Both the position numbers and the translations under genes were made by a program. A model generated the notes under the pieces. The model saw only the letters and a program-made list of their open reading frames with translations, ran no database searches and was not told where the DNA came from. A DNA stretch of 64,000 nt from Candidatus Saccharimonadota bacterium. GTDB lineage: Bacteria; Patescibacteriota; Saccharimonadia; Saccharimonadales; JAICHO01. Shown one piece after another: positions 55,542 to 62,288 of the stretch. The stretch's first letter is position 1; every line of letters starts with the position of its first letter. The stretch is from NCBI GenBank assembly GCA_025924835.1, contig JAICHO010000002.1:604-64603 (forward strand), in the 5' to 3' direction.

Positions 55542-57629
55542 ATGGCTGATAAGAAAACTGAAATGAAAAATATTAGGAACCTAGGGATTATTGCGCATAT
55601 TGATGCTGGCAAAACTACGACCACCGAAGGTATTTTGTACCGCACAGGTTTAAACCATAAGATTGGCGCCGTCCACGAAGGCGAGACCACAACTGACTGG
55701 ATGGCCCAGGAGCGTGAGCGTGGTATTACGATTGTGGCGGCTTCAGTGACCTGTTTTTGGAAAGGTAACCAGATCAATATTATTGATACGCCTGGACATA
55801 TTGACTTTACGGTTGAAGTGGAACGGTCCTTGCGTGTGCTTGATGGCGCATGCGTGGTCTTTGACGGCAAAATGGGCGTGGAATCACAGTCAGAAACCGT
55901 GTGGCGCCAAGCGGACAAGTACGGTGTGCCTCGCATCTGCTTTATTAACAAAATTAATCAAACCGGCGGTGATTTCTACAAATCCCTTGACTCCATCCAT
56001 AATCGCCTTAGCAAACGGGCGTTCCCCGTTCATTTACCCATTGGCTTCGAACAAAGCATCAATGGCATTGTTGACCTAATAGAAATGAAGGCTTACACCT
56101 ATAAAGAATTTACTGATAAAGCTCTTACTGAGGCCGAAATACCAGCTGACATGATCGATCAGGTTAAAAAATACCGTAGCTTACTAATTGAAAACGCCGT
56201 AGCCGAAGATGAAGCCATGCTTGAAAAATACTTTGAAGTTGGCGAAGAAGGGTTGACGGTTGAAGAAATTAAGCAAGCTATTCGTTCCGCGGTGTTATCT
56301 GGCAAGTTTTTTGCCGTTACAGGCGGGGATGGCCGTGGTGTAATTGTTGAAAAAGTTCTGGACATGGTCAATGACTATTTGCCAAGCCCGTTGGACGTCG
56401 GTTCAACGTGGGGGATTCACCCAAAGACCGGTGATGAAATTGAGCGAAAGCCTTCAGAGACAGAACCTTTTGCAGCCCTAGCATTTAAGATTACAACCGA
56501 TCCGTTTGTTGGAAAGCTGGCTTATTTTCGTGTTTATTCCGGAAAACTTACGGCTGGCTCCTATGTTTTAAACAGTTCTACTGGCGAAAAAGAGCGCATT
56601 GGGCGCATTGTACGCTTACAGGCAGACAAACGAACTGACGTAACGGAAGTCGGTGCCGGTGATATTGCCGCCATCGTGGGGCTCAAAGGTACCACGACCG
56701 GCCACACTCTTAGTGACCTCAATAACCCGATAGTTCTAGAAAGCATCACCTTCCCGGAACCACCGGTTTCAATTGCAATTGAGCCCAAGACAAAGGCTGA
56801 CCAGGAAAAAATGTCAATTGCCATGCAACGCCTGGCAGAAGAAGACCCTACTTTCCGGATTCGGGTAGATGACGAGACAGGTCAAACCATTATCTCTGGA
56901 ATGGGCGAACTACACCTAGAAATTATTGTAGATCGTATGAAACGGGAATTTGGTGTTGAGGCCAACATTGGTCAGCCTCAGGTGGCTTACCGTGAAACCA
57001 TACGTAAAGATGGGGTTGAAGTCCAAGGCAAGTTTATCCGGCAGTCCGGCGGCCGCGGGCAGTATGGTGACGTCTGGTTACGTCTAAGCCAAAACGAATC
57101 AGGTAAAGGCTTTGAATTCATCAACTCCATCAAGGGTGGTGTTGTCCCCAGTGAATACATCAAGCCTGTTGAGCAGGGTATTATTGAAGCGCTTAATAAT
57201 GGCGTACTAGCCGGCTATCCGGTCGTTGATGTCAAAGCCGAATTATATGATGGCAGTTATCACGAAGTTGACTCATCAGAAATGGCCTTTAAGATCGCGG
57301 GCTCTATGGCAATTCAAGACGGTGTCAAAAAGGCCAATCCGGTACTGTTAGAGCCAATCATGAAGGTGGTGGTGGTAACACCAGAAGAATTCATGGGGGA
57401 CGTTATTGGCGATCTGAACTCCAAACGTGGCCGGATTGAATCGATGGAAGATTTGAGCGCGGGCATTAAGGAAATAACCGCCTTTGTGCCATTGGGGGAA
57501 ATGTTCGGTTACACCACAAACCTCCGCAGTAATACCCAAGGTCGGGCCAGCAGCAGCATGGAATTGGACCATTACCAAGACGTTCCGAATAATGTGACCG
57601 AAGCTATCATAGCCAAAAACTCCAAATAA
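55542..57629 (+). CDS. fusA: Elongation factor G
   Basis: [20 protein letters not shown] and NKINQ GTPase motifs, 695 aa. Confidence 0.97.
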
Positions 57630-57755: not shown

Positions 57756-58937
57756 ATGGCACAATTCGACCGCAGCAAACCCCACGTCAATGTAGGAACC
57801 ATGGGCCACGTGGACCACGGTAAGACTACGCTAACAGCAGCTATTACGGCCGTACTTGCCAAAAAGCTCCCCAGCGATGTTAACAAACCCGTTAAATACG
57901 ATGAAATCGACAATGCTCCAGAGGAAAAAGCTCGTGGTATTACCATTGCTACCTCCCACCAGGAATACGAATCGGAAAAGCGTCACTACGCCCACGTAGA
58001 TATGCCCGGTCACGCCGATTATGTTAAGAACATGATTACTGGCGCCGCTCAGATTGATGGTGCCGTGTTGGTTGTATCTGCAGCTGACGGTCCAATGCCA
58101 CAGACCCGCGAACATGTATTGCTTGCCCGCCAGGTTGGTGTGCCTAGTATCTTGGTATTCATGAACAAGATGGACCTAGCTGATCCAGAATTAGTTGAAT
58201 TGGTTGAAATGGATATCCGTGAACTTCTGGCTAAAAACGGCTTTGACGAAAACGCTCCTATTGTTAAAGGTTCAGCCACTAAGGCACTGGATGGTTCCGC
58301 GAGCGATGAAGACGCGATTATGGAACTGGTCAAGGCTATGGATGACTATATTCCAGAACCAAAGCGCGAACTTGACAAGCCTTTCTTAATGCCGATTGAG
58401 GACGTATTCTCTATCAAAGGCCGTGGCACAGTTGCTACCGGTCGTGTTGAACAAGGTGTTATTAAGGTTAACGAAGAAGTTGAAATCGTCGGTATCCGTC
58501 CAACAAAAAAAGTTGTCGTAACAGGCGTTGAAATGTTCAAGAAAAACCTTGATCAAGGCCAAGCTGGCGACAATGTCGGTGTCCTGCTACGCGGCATTGA
58601 ACGTGATGACATTGAACGTGGACAAGTGCTCTGCAAGCCGGGTTCCATAACGCCACACACCGAGTTTGACAGTGAAGTTTACATCTTGACCAAAGAAGAA
58701 GGCGGGCGCCACACACCATTCTTTAAAGGCTACAAGCCGCAGTTTTACTTCCGCACAACCGATGTCACCGGAGAAGTTGAATTGCCAGCCGACAAAGAAA
58801 TGGTTATGCCAGGGGACACCATTACCTTTAAAGTCAAGTTACTAGCGCCTATTGCCATGGAACAAGGTCTGCGCTTCGCCATCCGTGAAGGTGGCCGAAC
58901 CGTTGGCGCCGGTGTTGTAACCAAAATCGTCAAATAA
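57756..58937 (+). CDS. tuf: Elongation factor Tu
   Basis: [18 protein letters not shown] and NKMD motifs, 393 aa. TAGGAG SD upstream. Confidence 0.97.
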
Positions 58938-58958
58938 ATCTATAAACGAAACAATATT

Positions 58959-58999
58959 ATTAAATAGAGAGTGGCCGACCCAGCTACTCTCTATTTAAT
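58959..58999. repeat. Perfect 14-bp inverted repeat downstream of tuf (possible terminator lacking a U-tract)
   Basis: ATTAAATAGAGAGT (58959-58972), a 13-nt loop, then ACTCTCTATTTAAT (58986-58999), followed by AGACAAAGG rather than a T-run. Confidence 0.6.
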
Positions 59000-59025
59000 A
59001 GACAAAGGGATCTTGTAAGATAATC

Positions 59026-59328
59026 ATGATAGAAGTAATGCTATTAGAACACGACACCGAAGCACTAGTGCGTCCTTTTACTACTGAAGATCCTCATTCA
59101 GTCGGCAAGATCGTATTAAGACAAGAAATGCGTGACCCAGCGGGGGGTGGTGAGCGGTATGCTGTTGGTTTTGTGGACATAGAATTTACTGAGCCAGATG
59201 TGAGATCAACTGGCGTGGCTCTTTTCCCGGAAAAGGACTTGCCGTTTACTCCCGATCACCTAAATGACGAGGCTGCAAAACGGTATATTAGTTTTGGTTA
59301 TTATTTGGCGTTTCAGCGAGAAATATAG
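59026..59328 (+). CDS. Hypothetical 100-aa protein between tuf and rpsJ
   Basis: ORF only, acidic, no motif recognised. Confidence 0.4.
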   Translation: MIEVMLLEHDTEALVRPFTTEDPHSVGKIVLRQEMRDPAGGGERYAVGFVDIEFTEPDVRSTGVALFPEKDLPFTPDHLNDEAAKRYISFGYYLAFQREI

Positions 59329-59482
59329 CGGTTGGGCCGGAGTTTAAATAGGAATTGATTACTGCTATTACAAAAAATGCTGTATAATCACAGCGTAAAT
59401 TAATGGTGGTGACTAAAAGTCATTCCGATGCTTCCTAAGTAAGCTTGGAAAGATGTTACACCACAGCAGGAGTTATAACCCA

Positions 59483-59845
59483 ATGGCAGAAGCCACAAAA
59501 CCAGCTGCTAACAAAGCAGATGCCAAAACTAAAGCTGAAAGCAAACAGCGGATTCGTATCCGTCTAAAGGCATATGACCATAAGGTCATTGACCAATCTA
59601 CGAAGCAGATTGTGGATACAGCGTTGCGTACCGGCGCCACTATTGCCGGCCCAATCCCGCTCCCTACAAAGAAAACAACATATACAGTCGTCAAAAGCCC
59701 GCACGTTTATAAAAAAGGTCGTGAGCAGTTCGAAATGCGTGTTCACAAGCGACTCATAGACGTCTTTGATCCCACGCCTAAGACAATCGATAGCCTCATG
59801 AACTTATCTCTGCCGGCCGGTTGCGACGCTGAAATAAAAATGTAG
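59483..59845 (+). CDS. rpsJ: 30S ribosomal protein S10 with an ~18-aa Lys/Ala-rich N-terminal extension
   Basis: [18 protein letters not shown]...HKRLIDV. ATG 59483 is preceded by AGGAG at 59469-59473. Confidence 0.93.
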
Positions 59846-59846
59846 C

Positions 59847-60653
59847 GTGCATAGTTTTGGGGTTAGCTTTTCAATCAAATACGCCCGCGAATTAGATGTT
59901 AACCCCCGCGCTTGTTTAGAAGCTGCTTTAAAAGACCTAGGTGCACGGCGTCTTAGGCTAATGAGTTACTGGGATATACACGAGCAGAAACAGGGTGTAC
60001 ATGATTTTGGCGAACTTGACTGGCAGTTTGATCTTGCCAAAAAGTATGGTGCCAAAGTATCTTTAGCCATAGGTCTGAGGCAACCCCGGTGGCCAGAATC
60101 CCATTGGCCGGCGTGGACAAAGGATCTGGACGCTACGACGTGGCAACAATATTTATTAAATTATATAGAAACAACGGTCAGGCGCTACCGGAACCATCCA
60201 AGCCTGCAAAGCTGGCAGTTAGAAAATGAGGCGTTATTAAAATCGTTTGGCCTGCATGGAAACTATGACCGCCGCAGACTGCAACAAGAACTGCAACTAG
60301 TCAAACAGACAGACAATATGCATCCGGTTATTATGACTATGAGTGATTCGTGGGGCATACCTGTGCGAAAGCCATGGCCGGATATATTCGGAATATCGCT
60401 GTATAGACGATTTTATGATCGTGGCGCATACAGATATTCCCGCCGTCCAGCATGGTTTTATGCACTGCGCGGGCGACTAATTACACTGCTTACCGGCCGG
60501 CCAGTTTTTATTCATGAACTGCAAATGGAACCATGGGGGCCTAAAGCTACGGTAGAGCTATCTCACGATGAGCAGCGGCAGACAATGAATCCTGATTATT
60601 TTAACCAAACGGTTGCTTACGCAGCAAAAACAGGAAAGAACAATTCTCATTAA
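59847..60653 (+). CDS. Clan GH-A-like (TIM-barrel) glycoside hydrolase-like protein
   Basis: 268 aa. WQLENEA resembles the acid/base NE(P) strand, and IHELQMEPWG a possible nucleophile strand. The GTG start is 1 nt after the rpsJ stop. Family assignment is unverified. Confidence 0.45.
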   Translation: MHSFGVSFSIKYARELDVNPRACLEAALKDLGARRLRLMSYWDIHEQKQGVHDFGELDWQFDLAKKYGAKVSLAIGLRQPRWPESHWPAWTKDLDATTWQQYLLNYIETTVRRYRNHPSLQSWQLENEALLKSFGLHGNYDRRRLQQELQLVKQTDNMHPVIMTMSDSWGIPVRKPWPDIFGISLYRRFYDRGAYRYSRRPAWFYALRGRLITLLTGRPVFIHELQMEPWGPKATVELSHDEQRQTMNPDYFNQTVAYAAKTGKNNSH

Positions 60654-60681
60654 TTAATACATAAATATGAGGAGACTTTAG

Positions 60682-61152
60682 ATGCCATCCATACCCAATA
60701 ACTCATCAAACAATTCACGTCGCGGCATTGACTATATCGGCGTATCCGTCTGCGCTATCGTACATGATGGTCACGGTAAAATACTGATGATGAAGCGGGG
60801 TGCAAAAGCACGTGATGAGCATGGGCGATGGGATATTATGGGCGGTTCGATGGAATTTGGTGAACTAATAGAAGAAACACTGCGGCGCGAATTGTATGAA
60901 GAGTTAAGGACAAAGCCGCTGCGCATACAATTTTTGACTGCCTACGAGGCGCATAGGCAGCACAAAAGTGATAAAACACATTGGATAGCTTTATTGCATG
61001 GCGTTGAGGTAGATCCGAAGACAATAATGCTAGGTGAGCCAGATAAGTTTGATGAAATAGGGTGGTTTACCGCTGCCACCCTACCATCTCCGTTACATTC
61101 TCAGTTTCACAAAGCTCTGAAAGCCGCCTTGGTAGCCGGCATATTAATATAG
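60682..61152 (+). CDS. NUDIX hydrolase
   Basis: Nudix box GSMEFGELIEETLRRELYEELR (G-x5-E-x7-REUxEE). GAGGAG SD upstream. Confidence 0.8.
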   Translation: MPSIPNNSSNNSRRGIDYIGVSVCAIVHDGHGKILMMKRGAKARDEHGRWDIMGGSMEFGELIEETLRRELYEELRTKPLRIQFLTAYEAHRQHKSDKTHWIALLHGVEVDPKTIMLGEPDKFDEIGWFTAATLPSPLHSQFHKALKAALVAGILI

Positions 61153-61167
61153 TGTATACTGCTGCTT

Positions 61168-61467
61168 ATGGTTAAACGTAAGACAAAAAATAATACTAAA
61201 AAAATATCAAAGCAGCCACGTGAGCTGGACGGTATTTATATTCTTAAAATCGTATTGTATGTCATAGTTGGATCCCAATGGATTCGTCTGAGCGATACGG
61301 CCATGACCAAACAAATACCGATTCCGGCAGGATTAATTATTGGTAGCTTGTTTGCCATGCATGATCATTTTCAGATTGACAGAAAGATTGAATACGCAAT
61401 TCTATTGTTAGCTTGCTTGTTAGGCTTTTGGTCTCAAACGGGACTTCTAATAACAGCACTCCATTAG
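61168..61467 (+). CDS. Small membrane protein (hypothetical)
   Basis: 99 aa with a basic N-terminus followed by three hydrophobic segments. Confidence 0.45.
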   Translation: MVKRKTKNNTKKISKQPRELDGIYILKIVLYVIVGSQWIRLSDTAMTKQIPIPAGLIIGSLFAMHDHFQIDRKIEYAILLLACLLGFWSQTGLLITALH

Positions 61468-61676
61468 CCCGCATGGTTTGCCCGGAGTAAACCCATTTAA
61501 TTTTGTAGTTTTTGCAACATATTGACAGGAGTAGGCGTTGTCTGTTAATCTGTAATGGTATCTAAATAATATCTTGGCCTTCTATCAAGGTTTGCCATCA
61601 ATAACAGGGGCGAAAACCAGAAGAGACCAAGCGTTTTTATGTCTAGCCTTGGAGTTTGGACAATGAAGGGACGATC

Positions 61677-62288
61677 GTGAAGGCACTCATTACCAGGAAG
61701 ATCGGTATGACTAGCACCATTGCTGAGGATGGTGTAATGACTGCTATTACTTTGCTTTCGGCCACGAATAACGTCGTAACGCAAGTTAAAACCATTGAAA
61801 CTGATGGGTATACTGCTTTACAAGTCGGCGCAGAAGAATCAACTAAACATGGCAAGGCCAAGGCCGGCCACTTAAAAGCCGCCAAAGCTCAGTCCAAGAT
61901 CCTACGTGAGTTCCGTGTGCAAGATATCCCTGAAGAACTCGGCGTCGGCGCGTTAGTTGCAGCCGACGTTTTTAATATAGGCGACAAAGTTAATGTCACT
62001 GGTATCAGCAAAGGCAAAGGGTGGGGTGGCACAATTAAACGACACAATTTTCATCGCGGACGGAAAACACACGGCGGTGGTTCATATCGTCGTCCCGGAT
62101 CTATCGGCTCCATGTATCCGCAAAAGATTTTTAAGGGCAAAAAAATGGCCGGTCAACTGGGTTATGATCAAGTTACCGTGCAAAATCTGACAGTTGCTTT
62201 AGTAGATAACGATCTTGGAGTCATAGGTGTAGCTGGAGCCGTTCCGGGTCCACGCAAGGGTATTGTGCTCGTACAGGAGGCTCAGTAA
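61677..62288 (+). CDS. rplC: 50S ribosomal protein L3
   Basis: (M)KALITRKIGMTS... and the WGG...RPGSIG region. In-frame GTG 61677 gives the canonical N-terminus, whereas the track starts at TTG 61656. Confidence 0.93.
   Translation: MKALITRKIGMTSTIAEDGVMTAITLLSATNNVVTQVKTIETDGYTALQVGAEESTKHGKAKAGHLKAAKAQSKILREFRVQDIPEELGVGALVAADVFNIGDKVNVTGISKGKGWGGTIKRHNFHRGRKTHGGGSYRRPGSIGSMYPQKIFKGKKMAGQLGYDQVTVQNLTVALVDNDLGVIGVAGAVPGPRKGIVLVQEAQ

Follow-up and report, generated by a model that had tools for sequence, protein, structure and literature searches.

In a 64,000-nt stretch of DNA from a member of the Saccharibacteria (TM7), here called the window and assigned to this lineage by its homologues and related loci, three open reading frames (ORFs) lie between the genes of the ribosomal proteins S10 (rpsJ) and L3 (rplC). 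Few gene orders in bacteria are as conserved as that of the str-S10-spc cluster. The region is of interest for a class-wide split around rpsJ, for a variable bay of genes, and for two structured leaders that match no Rfam family. It contains the following features (aa, amino acids; GH, glycoside hydrolase):

59381..59388, + strand: −10 region of the putative rpsJ promoter, TGTATAAT, as read from the sequence
59406..59464, + strand: rpsJ leader RNA (GUGGUGACUAAAAGUC, hairpin, GAUGUUACACCAC), recognised by covariation
59483..59845, + strand: rpsJ (S10, 120 aa; PF00338, E 7.5e-36)
59847..60653, + strand: GH-A-like gene (268 aa), truncated at its 3' end; Pfam GH42/GH2_C
60682..61152, + strand: NUDIX hydrolase gene (156 aa; PF00293, E 2.7e-19)
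61153..61160, + strand: −10-like box, TGTATACT, whose end lies 7 nt 5' of the membrane-protein ATG
61168..61467, + strand: membrane-protein gene (99 aa); its Saccharibacteria family is unannotated
61468-61676: spacer of 209 nt between the membrane-protein gene and rplC
61475..61493, + strand: terminator-like hairpin with a T-rich tail, a match of the consensus scan only
61505..61551, + strand: predicted promoter block of the rplC operon, conserved across 54 species
61573..61638, + strand: rplC leader, a long interrupted hairpin (61573-61631) followed by TTTTT (61634-61638)
61677..62288, + strand: rplC (L3; PF00297), the first gene of an rplC-rplD-rplW-rplB… unit

The rpsJ gene starts with ATG at 59483, preceded by AGGAG, and ends with TAG at 59843-59845; its product shares 77-94% identity with the S10 proteins of 80 Saccharibacteria species. 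The rplC gene starts with GTG (N-terminus of the product, MKALITRKIGMT), and rplD overlaps its stop codon. The first and the third of the interposed ORFs are real genes with 2182 and 421 homologues, respectively, and all three represent ordinary accessory cargo for the lineage, one of them damaged. An initial annotation of the window had described three genes and a 209-nt spacer as separating rpsJ from rplC (59847-61676), and all of these coordinates are correct.

The rpsJ-rplC gap in related species

The initial annotation took the interruption for an exception, but in Saccharibacteria these two genes are separated as a rule. With S10 as the query, 80 species-level loci were fetched, 74 of which contain complete matches to both rpsJ and rplC and were used to measure the gap. 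It ranges from 134 to 5395 nt (median 1406), exceeds 500 nt in 67 species and is at most 230 nt long in only five; the split is present in 69 of the 74 species. The genes rplC and rplD, with a median distance of −1 nt, overlap or abut in nearly all loci. A promoter-plus-hairpin block like the one preceding rplC in the window (see below) is clear in four of the five species with gaps of 134-230 nt. Because most minimal-gap species keep this block, the ancestral junction is, judging by the compared loci, composed of the rpsJ stop, promoter, leader and rplC. The initial annotation had itself named an ancient presence of the insert in relatives as evidence that would speak against its interpretation, and for the split as such this is what the comparison revealed.

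Clustering of the gap occupants placed the membrane protein in 38 loci, NUDIX proteins in 11 and GH proteins in four, the rest being mostly singletons. Pfam domains detected among 114 cargo ORFs were NUDIX (14), β-lactamase-like (3), adenosine deaminase (2) and HAD (2), with single cases of CTP synthase, guanylate kinase, WhiB, PLD and reverse transcriptase; a His phosphatase was also among the cargo. Most cargo is co-oriented with rpsJ (109 ORFs of at least 100 aa on the + strand vs 24 on the − strand). Among the cargo ORFs of related loci (alignment A8), one gap contains the ORF with the reverse transcriptase domain (RVT_1), which may belong to a group II intron or a retron in the bay, and three gaps contain ORFs of the β-lactamase family.

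As one of two explanations for the interposed genes, the initial annotation had suggested a lineage-specific functional linkage to the ribosomal genes. The arrangement is indeed lineage-specific, but a specific functional tie of the sugar enzyme to the ribosome is unlikely, because the gap content differs in almost every species and the glycosidase-like gene is truncated in the window. A broader form of this explanation holds that expression of the membrane protein, and possibly of the NUDIX hydrolase, has to be coupled to the ribosome and to growth rate, or that these proteins have a role in translation. Conceivable roles are the processing of RNA 5' ends or the sanitation of nucleotides by the NUDIX hydrolase, and a contribution of the membrane protein to ribosome-associated membrane insertion. 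The membrane gene would fit such a role by its frequency, as 46 of 82 loci have it 3' of rpsJ (tblastn) and it stands directly before the rplC promoter in 19 of 42, and so would the NUDIX genes, which often lie directly 5' of it, the predominant orientation of the cargo, and the presence of several genes of nucleotide metabolism. However, about 40% of the species have no membrane gene at this position, most have no NUDIX gene, most cargo clusters are singletons of unrelated function, and a homologue of the GH-A-like protein (P0079) is encoded at an unrelated locus in another genome. Moreover, the membrane gene carries a putative −10 box of its own and need not depend on rpsJ transcription, and its product has no known likeness by family, structure or defence-system models. 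A functional linkage even in this broader form is considered unlikely.

The second explanation had been a recent insertion. Instead, the arrangement is inherited and lineage-wide. The same three genes occur in the same order in two related loci, L085 (rpsJ-GH(302 aa)-NUDIX-membrane-rplC) and L086 (rpsJ-HisPhos-GH-…-HAD-NUDIX-membrane-rplC), and their proteins share 61-68% identity with those in the window, which argues for vertical inheritance. Total GC and GC at third codon positions (GC3) of the GH-A-like gene (0.463/0.420) and the NUDIX gene (0.459/0.439) fall within the genome background (0.470/0.457), as does their codon use; this check, proposed in the initial annotation, thus gave no foreign signal, with the membrane gene being lower in GC (0.373). 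No integrase, transposase, flanking repeats or deviant composition indicative of a mobile element or genomic island were found at the locus, where a repeat search returned only chance matches of 12-19 nt. The horizontal acquisition of a three-gene cassette by an intact rpsJ-rplC operon, through such an element, draws on the fact that most bacteria have rpsJ next to rplC (for the gene order of E. coli, see PMC3616713), on the lower GC of the membrane gene, and on the one reverse transcriptase in the cargo of another species. With the shared gene order, the native composition of two of the genes, the lack of mobile-element signs and the number of species that share the split all opposing it, this scenario is highly improbable.

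Predicted promoters and leader RNAs of rplC and rpsJ

The spacer upstream of rplC, initially described as untranslated, is indeed 209 nt long, yet contains a conserved putative promoter block and a structured leader. In the window, the block consists of GTAGTTTTTGCAAC (61505-61518), TTGACA (61522-61527), a spacer of 18 nt, TG (61543-61544) and TAATCT (61546-61551). Across the 54 aligned species, TTGACA and TG.TA are invariant or nearly so, and the conserved order is GTAGAAT…CAAC, TTGACA, an 18-nt spacer (TGn included), TGnTA(A/C)TCT, GGTAT, the hairpin and TTTTT. The possibility that the block before the hairpin forms part of the RNA was rejected, as RNAalifold predicts no pairs in this part. 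Since pairing is not predicted there, the conservation of the upstream block looks like conservation at the DNA level and fits a promoter. The GTAGAAT(N4)CAAC block resembles the TGTAnAAT form of the −10 region of rpsJ and the membrane gene, and may represent an additional promoter in tandem or an element of the UP type.

For the rplC leader, an alignment of 64 species (A3) yielded a consensus structure with 17 pairs, 15 of which show compensatory changes (RNAalifold). Paired bases occupy 89.7% of the alignment cells at these positions vs 30-47% in slid controls, the covariation score is 0.435 vs at most 0.117 in the controls, and none of 500 shuffles reached the observed values. A covariance model (R1) found 75 matches with E <1e-4, one per locus, on the coding strand and just upstream of rplC, including loci outside the seed alignment; no other match was found in 938 kb of loci. 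The stem of 17-18 pairs is followed by TTTT(T), whose T positions are at least 90% conserved in the 64 species, and thus has the form of a terminator or attenuator. This hairpin lies 30-150 nt before rplC and downstream of the TTGACA/TGnTA block. Conserved unpaired or bulged bases include AGGUC, an AA bulge in GAAACC, and an AACAG loop, with short-loop variants of the leader lacking the latter.

Because all rplC transcripts must pass the hairpin and U-tract if they start at the upstream block, and because unpaired bases are conserved, the rplC leader is most likely a protein-responsive element of the attenuator type, which may also stop read-through from upstream. Alternatively, the hairpin and U-tract could be nothing but the intrinsic terminator of the rpsJ/cargo unit, with rplC being transcribed from a nearby promoter or by partial read-through. 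The standard form of the element, a stem plus TTTTT, suits such a role, and in some loci (e.g. L001) the last cargo gene ends at the promoter block and no other terminator is present. However, the hairpin is situated downstream of TTGACA/TGnTA and no conserved promoter-like sequence follows it, and its unpaired and bulged bases are conserved even though the L3 proteins are only 60-73% identical, which is not usual for plain terminators. A role in termination only is thus quite improbable, and the attenuator-type element remains the preferred interpretation.

Two more specific proposals for this element were not upheld. An antiterminator pairing that would involve an upstream copy of ACAGRGGT and the inner stem was not supported when the sequences of the window and of locus L011 were inspected by eye. 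Furthermore, the loop and 3' strand of the leader, AUAACAGRGGUAGAAACCGCC (61600-61625), resemble positions 2448-2467 of E. coli 23S rRNA (AUAACAGGCUGAUACCGCCC), which belong to the peptidyl-transferase central loop and the 5' strand of helix 89 (L087). As 57 of 200 shuffles score as high, this match is not significant, and mimicry of 23S rRNA gained no support from the comparison with E. coli.

A box of the form 'tGTAnAAT' is conserved at the −10 position of rpsJ in the relatives. The rpsJ leader, analysed in an alignment of 39 species (A7), has 16 pairs in the RNAalifold consensus, 10 of them with compensatory changes; 95.7% of the cells are paired vs 28-53% in slid controls, and the covariation score is 0.470 vs at most 0.118. 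Between the covarying stems lie the invariant segments GACUAAAAGUC and GAUGUUAC, and the minimum-energy fold of the leader in the window is the consensus fold. The corresponding model (R2) found 48 strong matches (E of about 3e-6 or better), all upstream of rpsJ and a single one in each locus. Two of the leader matches, in L012 (5698-5775) and L009 (5506-5583), are located 230-420 nt further upstream than usual, and in these loci an insertion may have occurred between the leader and rpsJ. Other lineages and N. lyticus TM7x have a variant of the leader (GAGAACUCG…GAGGUUAC). A fragment from upstream of rpsJ of N. lyticus TM7x drove a resistance gene in Saccharibacteria (PMC10633639), and this 'rpsJ promoter' cassette contains the variant leader. 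That the TM7x fragment works as a promoter supports the view that rpsJ has a promoter of its own.

Both leaders possess the kind of conserved structure that characterises leader RNAs of ribosomal-protein genes, and neither is represented among the families of Rfam 15. A search of positions 58800-62000 with E values up to 5 gave no relevant match, only three at chance level that lie off the hairpin/U-tract element; the rpsJ leader had no match; and at gathering thresholds only one tRNA was detected in the whole window. To our knowledge, almost no cis-regulatory RNAs have been described in Patescibacteria. In the E. coli S10 leader, L4 causes termination and blocks translation (PMC3616713). The element upstream of rplC is similar to it in that a structured 5' leader with a hairpin and a U-run precedes an operon containing rplC-rplD-rplW-rplB…, and as an attenuator it would be the functional counterpart of this leader. 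However, the E. coli leader precedes rpsJ, whereas the hairpin found here precedes rplC, and rpsJ has a separate and unrelated leader. Because of this position, and as no Rfam 15 match was obtained, identity with an E. coli-type S10 (L4) leader was rejected. An r-leader candidate of Archaeoglobi, located directly upstream of rplC, rplD, rplW and rplB, has been proposed to bind L4 by analogy (Eckert & Weinberg, 2020; PMC7247131). It shares the position upstream of rplC with the element described here, but it is archaeal, is a different motif, and has no Rfam match in the window; the same study lists no motifs of Saccharibacteria or TM7. In the literature searched on the S10 operon, rpsJ or ribosomal leaders of Saccharibacteria, no description of these features was found.

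A two-unit model of the S10 cluster

According to these data, rpsJ and rplC appear to belong to separate transcription units in the window and in nearly all of the 74 related species compared. Since rplC has its own conserved putative promoter and leader, the three genes sit between two predicted units and not inside one. For the same reason, their coupling to the most highly expressed operon, as proposed in the initial annotation, is not supported. The locus is best understood, with a probability of roughly 0.7, as a two-unit S10 cluster with a permissive gene bay that holds an inherited three-gene set in this organism. The first unit would be rpsJ, driven by its own promoter (59381-59388) and equipped with a structured 5' leader (59406-59464). 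The second would start at rplC with a near-consensus promoter (61522-61551) and a leader consisting of the hairpin and U-tract (61573-61638), and these would initiate expression of the large ribosomal-protein operon. The DNA from the rpsJ stop to the rplC promoter would act as the permissive bay, in which lineages gain and lose accessory genes, mostly on the same strand. In the window, the GH-A-like gene would be part of the rpsJ transcript and be translated, probably through re-initiation at its GTG, the NUDIX gene would be translated by means of its own Shine-Dalgarno sequence, and the membrane gene, whose product is the oldest and commonest occupant of the bay, would be transcribed both within the rpsJ unit and from its own −10 box. 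The terminator-like hairpin at 61475-61493, the leader hairpin, or both might end the rpsJ/cargo unit. The former is not a general feature, as the membrane gene in L001 ends directly at the promoter block.

Several points weigh against this model. A consensus promoter scan called neither the rplC nor the rpsJ promoter in the window, and TAATCT, which matches TATAAT at three of six positions, would be a weak −10 region. More generally, the promoters, the terminator and the translational coupling are deduced from sequence conservation. Transcript boundaries and attenuation are inferred likewise, whereas the gene identities, the truncation, the variable gap across the class, the conserved sequence of the promoter blocks, and the covariation and specific position of both RNA structures are shown directly. 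The folding energies of the single leader sequences are not better than those of shuffled ones (z = −0.66 and −1.84), and for this reason the case for both leader structures is built on covariation. The 80 loci are the closest relatives by S10 and do not form a balanced sample of the class, and the cargo ORFs were called mechanically. Finally, the truncated GH ORF is still open and retains all family-invariant residues up to the break, and its protein could retain some function.

A more far-reaching version of the model is put forward tentatively, at somewhat less than even odds. Both leaders would represent new classes of ribosomal-protein leaders of Saccharibacteria, with an attenuator at rplC and a separate regulator at rpsJ, and the shift of the control point would have opened the bay. 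By analogy, the ligand of the rplC leader might then be L4; should its weak similarity to 23S rRNA 2448-2467 be real, L3 or L16 would be candidates. Epibionts with reduced genomes might in this manner park accessory genes behind the strong rpsJ promoter. Irrespective of the ligands, there is good support for both RNA structures as candidate elements of ribosomal-protein regulation in Patescibacteria. They are amenable to testing, as Saccharibacteria can now be transformed and the published 'rpsJ promoter' tool carries a variant of one of them (PMC10633639).

The interval upstream of rpsJ is variable as well. In the window, tuf (57756-58937) lies 5' of rpsJ. In loci L005-L084, the distance between the tuf stop and codon 21 of rpsJ ranges from 34 to 2548 nt. 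In seven loci (e.g. L028, L038, L064 and L072) tuf abuts rpsJ directly, and these loci lack the rpsJ leader. The S10 gene of cyanobacteria, plastids and archaea belongs to the str cluster (rps12-rps7-fus-tuf-rps10). The Saccharibacteria resemble these groups in that rpsJ follows tuf and is detached from rplC. They differ in that rpsJ mostly has its own predicted promoter and leader, and in that rplC stays nearby (0.1-5 kb), the gap being filled with variable genes. The class-wide break on both sides of rpsJ, and its use as a bay, suggest that even the str-S10-spc gene order can relax once regulatory elements have moved.

The three interposed genes

The first interposed gene starts with a GTG at 59847, 1 nt after the S10 stop, and has no Shine-Dalgarno sequence. 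The translational coupling to S10 that the initial annotation derived from this arrangement is plausible. The protein was also described as a TIM barrel similar to glycosidases, and this description holds at the level of clan GH-A. The 268-aa ORF has weak Pfam matches to GH42 (E 6.4e-6) and GH2_C (E 6.8e-6) that support the fold, and its N-terminus aligns with the N-termini of homologues of about 300 aa. The 2182 homologues are single-domain proteins, typically of 295-315 aa, and the family profile matches structures of GH42, GH10 and GH5 marginally (E about 1e-5, partial coverage). In an AlphaFold2 (AF2) model of a full-length homologue (P0006, 64% identical; pLDDT 90, pTM 0.90), eight β/α units are present, with β8 at 267-270 and helices at 272-296. 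The top 50 Foldseek matches of this model are all enzymes of clan GH-A (best E 1e-10), among them GH35, GH158, GH42, PslG, GH164, GH2 and GH5; model and matches together identify the family as having the (β/α)8 barrel of the clan. An Asn-Glu pair, with the Glu in the place of the acid/base residue, occurs in QLENEA (N127-E128) after β4 (strand 120-125), and a Glu at the end of β7, the expected position of the nucleophile, occurs in IHELQ (E224; strand 220-226). These residues are invariant in 40 sequences and are all present in the window copy.

Thus, the family shares with other members of clan GH-A (GH42, GH35, GH5, GH10, GH158, GH164 and PslG/GH39) the (β/α)8 barrel and two Glu residues, one paired with Asn after β4 and the other ending β7, but differs from them by its size of about 300 aa and its single domain. 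Identification as a GH42 β-galactosidase was rejected, as PF02449 covers only residues 41-131 (profile positions 33-140 of 376) with 26 bits, the scores for GH42 GalA/GalB in NCBIfam are 17-21 bits vs a cut-off of 900, and GH42 enzymes are multi-domain proteins of about 650-700 aa. The assignment is to the clan only, and a CAZy family cannot be assigned. Annotations that call the 268-aa product a 'β-galactosidase' should mark it as truncated and as belonging to a GH-A family that is unassigned.

The barrel of the window copy is incomplete. The protein ends at residue 268, its homology to the relatives stops at about residue 263, and it lacks β8 (267-270) and the helices at 272-296. The missing tail has the conserved sequence '..YLWGLEWWYWL..W..' with the motif WGLEWW, of which no remnant was found downstream of the window copy. 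At the DNA level, about 420 nt are absent at the 3' end of the gene as compared with L085, where a full-length GH gene (302 aa) is followed by a spacer of about 330 nt and then by the NUDIX gene. The window copy is probably a defective, inactive remnant that arose through a deletion of about 420 nt. An insertion of the NUDIX gene as the cause of the truncation was dropped, because L085 contains a full-length GH gene and NUDIX in the same order; for this reason a deletion fits better. A 77-81-aa ORF was called on the − strand just after the full-length GH gene in L085 (4048-4281) and L086 (4893-5138). It corresponds to the stretch deleted in the window, and no Pfam match is on record for it.

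The second gene is preceded by its own Shine-Dalgarno sequence, GAGGAG (60669-60674), 7 nt 5' of the ATG. This feature and the attribution to the NUDIX hydrolases had been recognised in the initial annotation and were confirmed, with a PF00293 score of 69.9 bits vs a cut-off of 21.1 placing the protein in the superfamily. Its Nudix box reads G55-x5-E61-x7-R69-E70-L71-x-E73-E74, where the residue after L71 is Y. Compared with GX5EX7REUXEEXGU, the final G is replaced by R76, and the catalytic REx2EE is intact. The nearest solved structures are 4dyw (3e-11), NUDX1, NudI and NUDT15, and the sequence suggests a MutT-like protein of the single-domain type. The protein shares the fold and the intact REx2EE box with these MutT-like NUDIX NTP pyrophosphohydrolases. 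However, it scores far below the cut-offs of all NCBIfam equivalogs, so that a substrate is not assignable. In particular, MutT (8-oxo-dGTP diphosphatase) was rejected as an equivalog (TIGR00586, 27.3 vs 97.9; NF008044, 24.6 vs 148). A PADLOC search of the locus proteins revealed no anti-phage defence system; the NUDIX protein matched only the candidate PDC-S07, at the level of the NUDIX domain (1.3e-10, residues 23-91), and the other proteins had no match at all.

The third gene encodes a small membrane protein of a family whose 421 homologues, of about 95 aa, all lack a Pfam domain. It is characterised by a Lys-rich N-terminus and an H-x-H…D-R-K-x-E motif with the invariant residues H65, H67, D71, R72, K73 and E75. 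The AF2 model contains three helices (pLDDT 76), and its best Foldseek match in the PDB has an E value of 0.28. Searches against Pfam, NCBIfam and PADLOC gave no match. The TATACT (61155-61160) that the initial annotation had noted 7 nt 5' of the ATG gained comparative support from 34 loci. A TAnnnT box whose end lies 6-7 nt 5' of the ATG is present in 19 of these, 15 times in combination with TGn, vs 0-5 loci for TAnnnT at every other offset. This positional preference suggests a dedicated promoter giving a leaderless or nearly leaderless mRNA. Around the start of the gene (61153-61170) in the 34 loci, the extended −10-like box is followed by the conserved context tGCTa-ATG-GCt-AAA.

Between tuf and rpsJ, a 100-aa ORF (orf100; 59026-59328) with a low GC3 of 0.366 had no match in Pfam, NCBIfam or PADLOC and no tblastn homologue in 84 related loci, and it may not be a real gene. 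In the same window, fusA (55542-57629) lies 5' of tuf.

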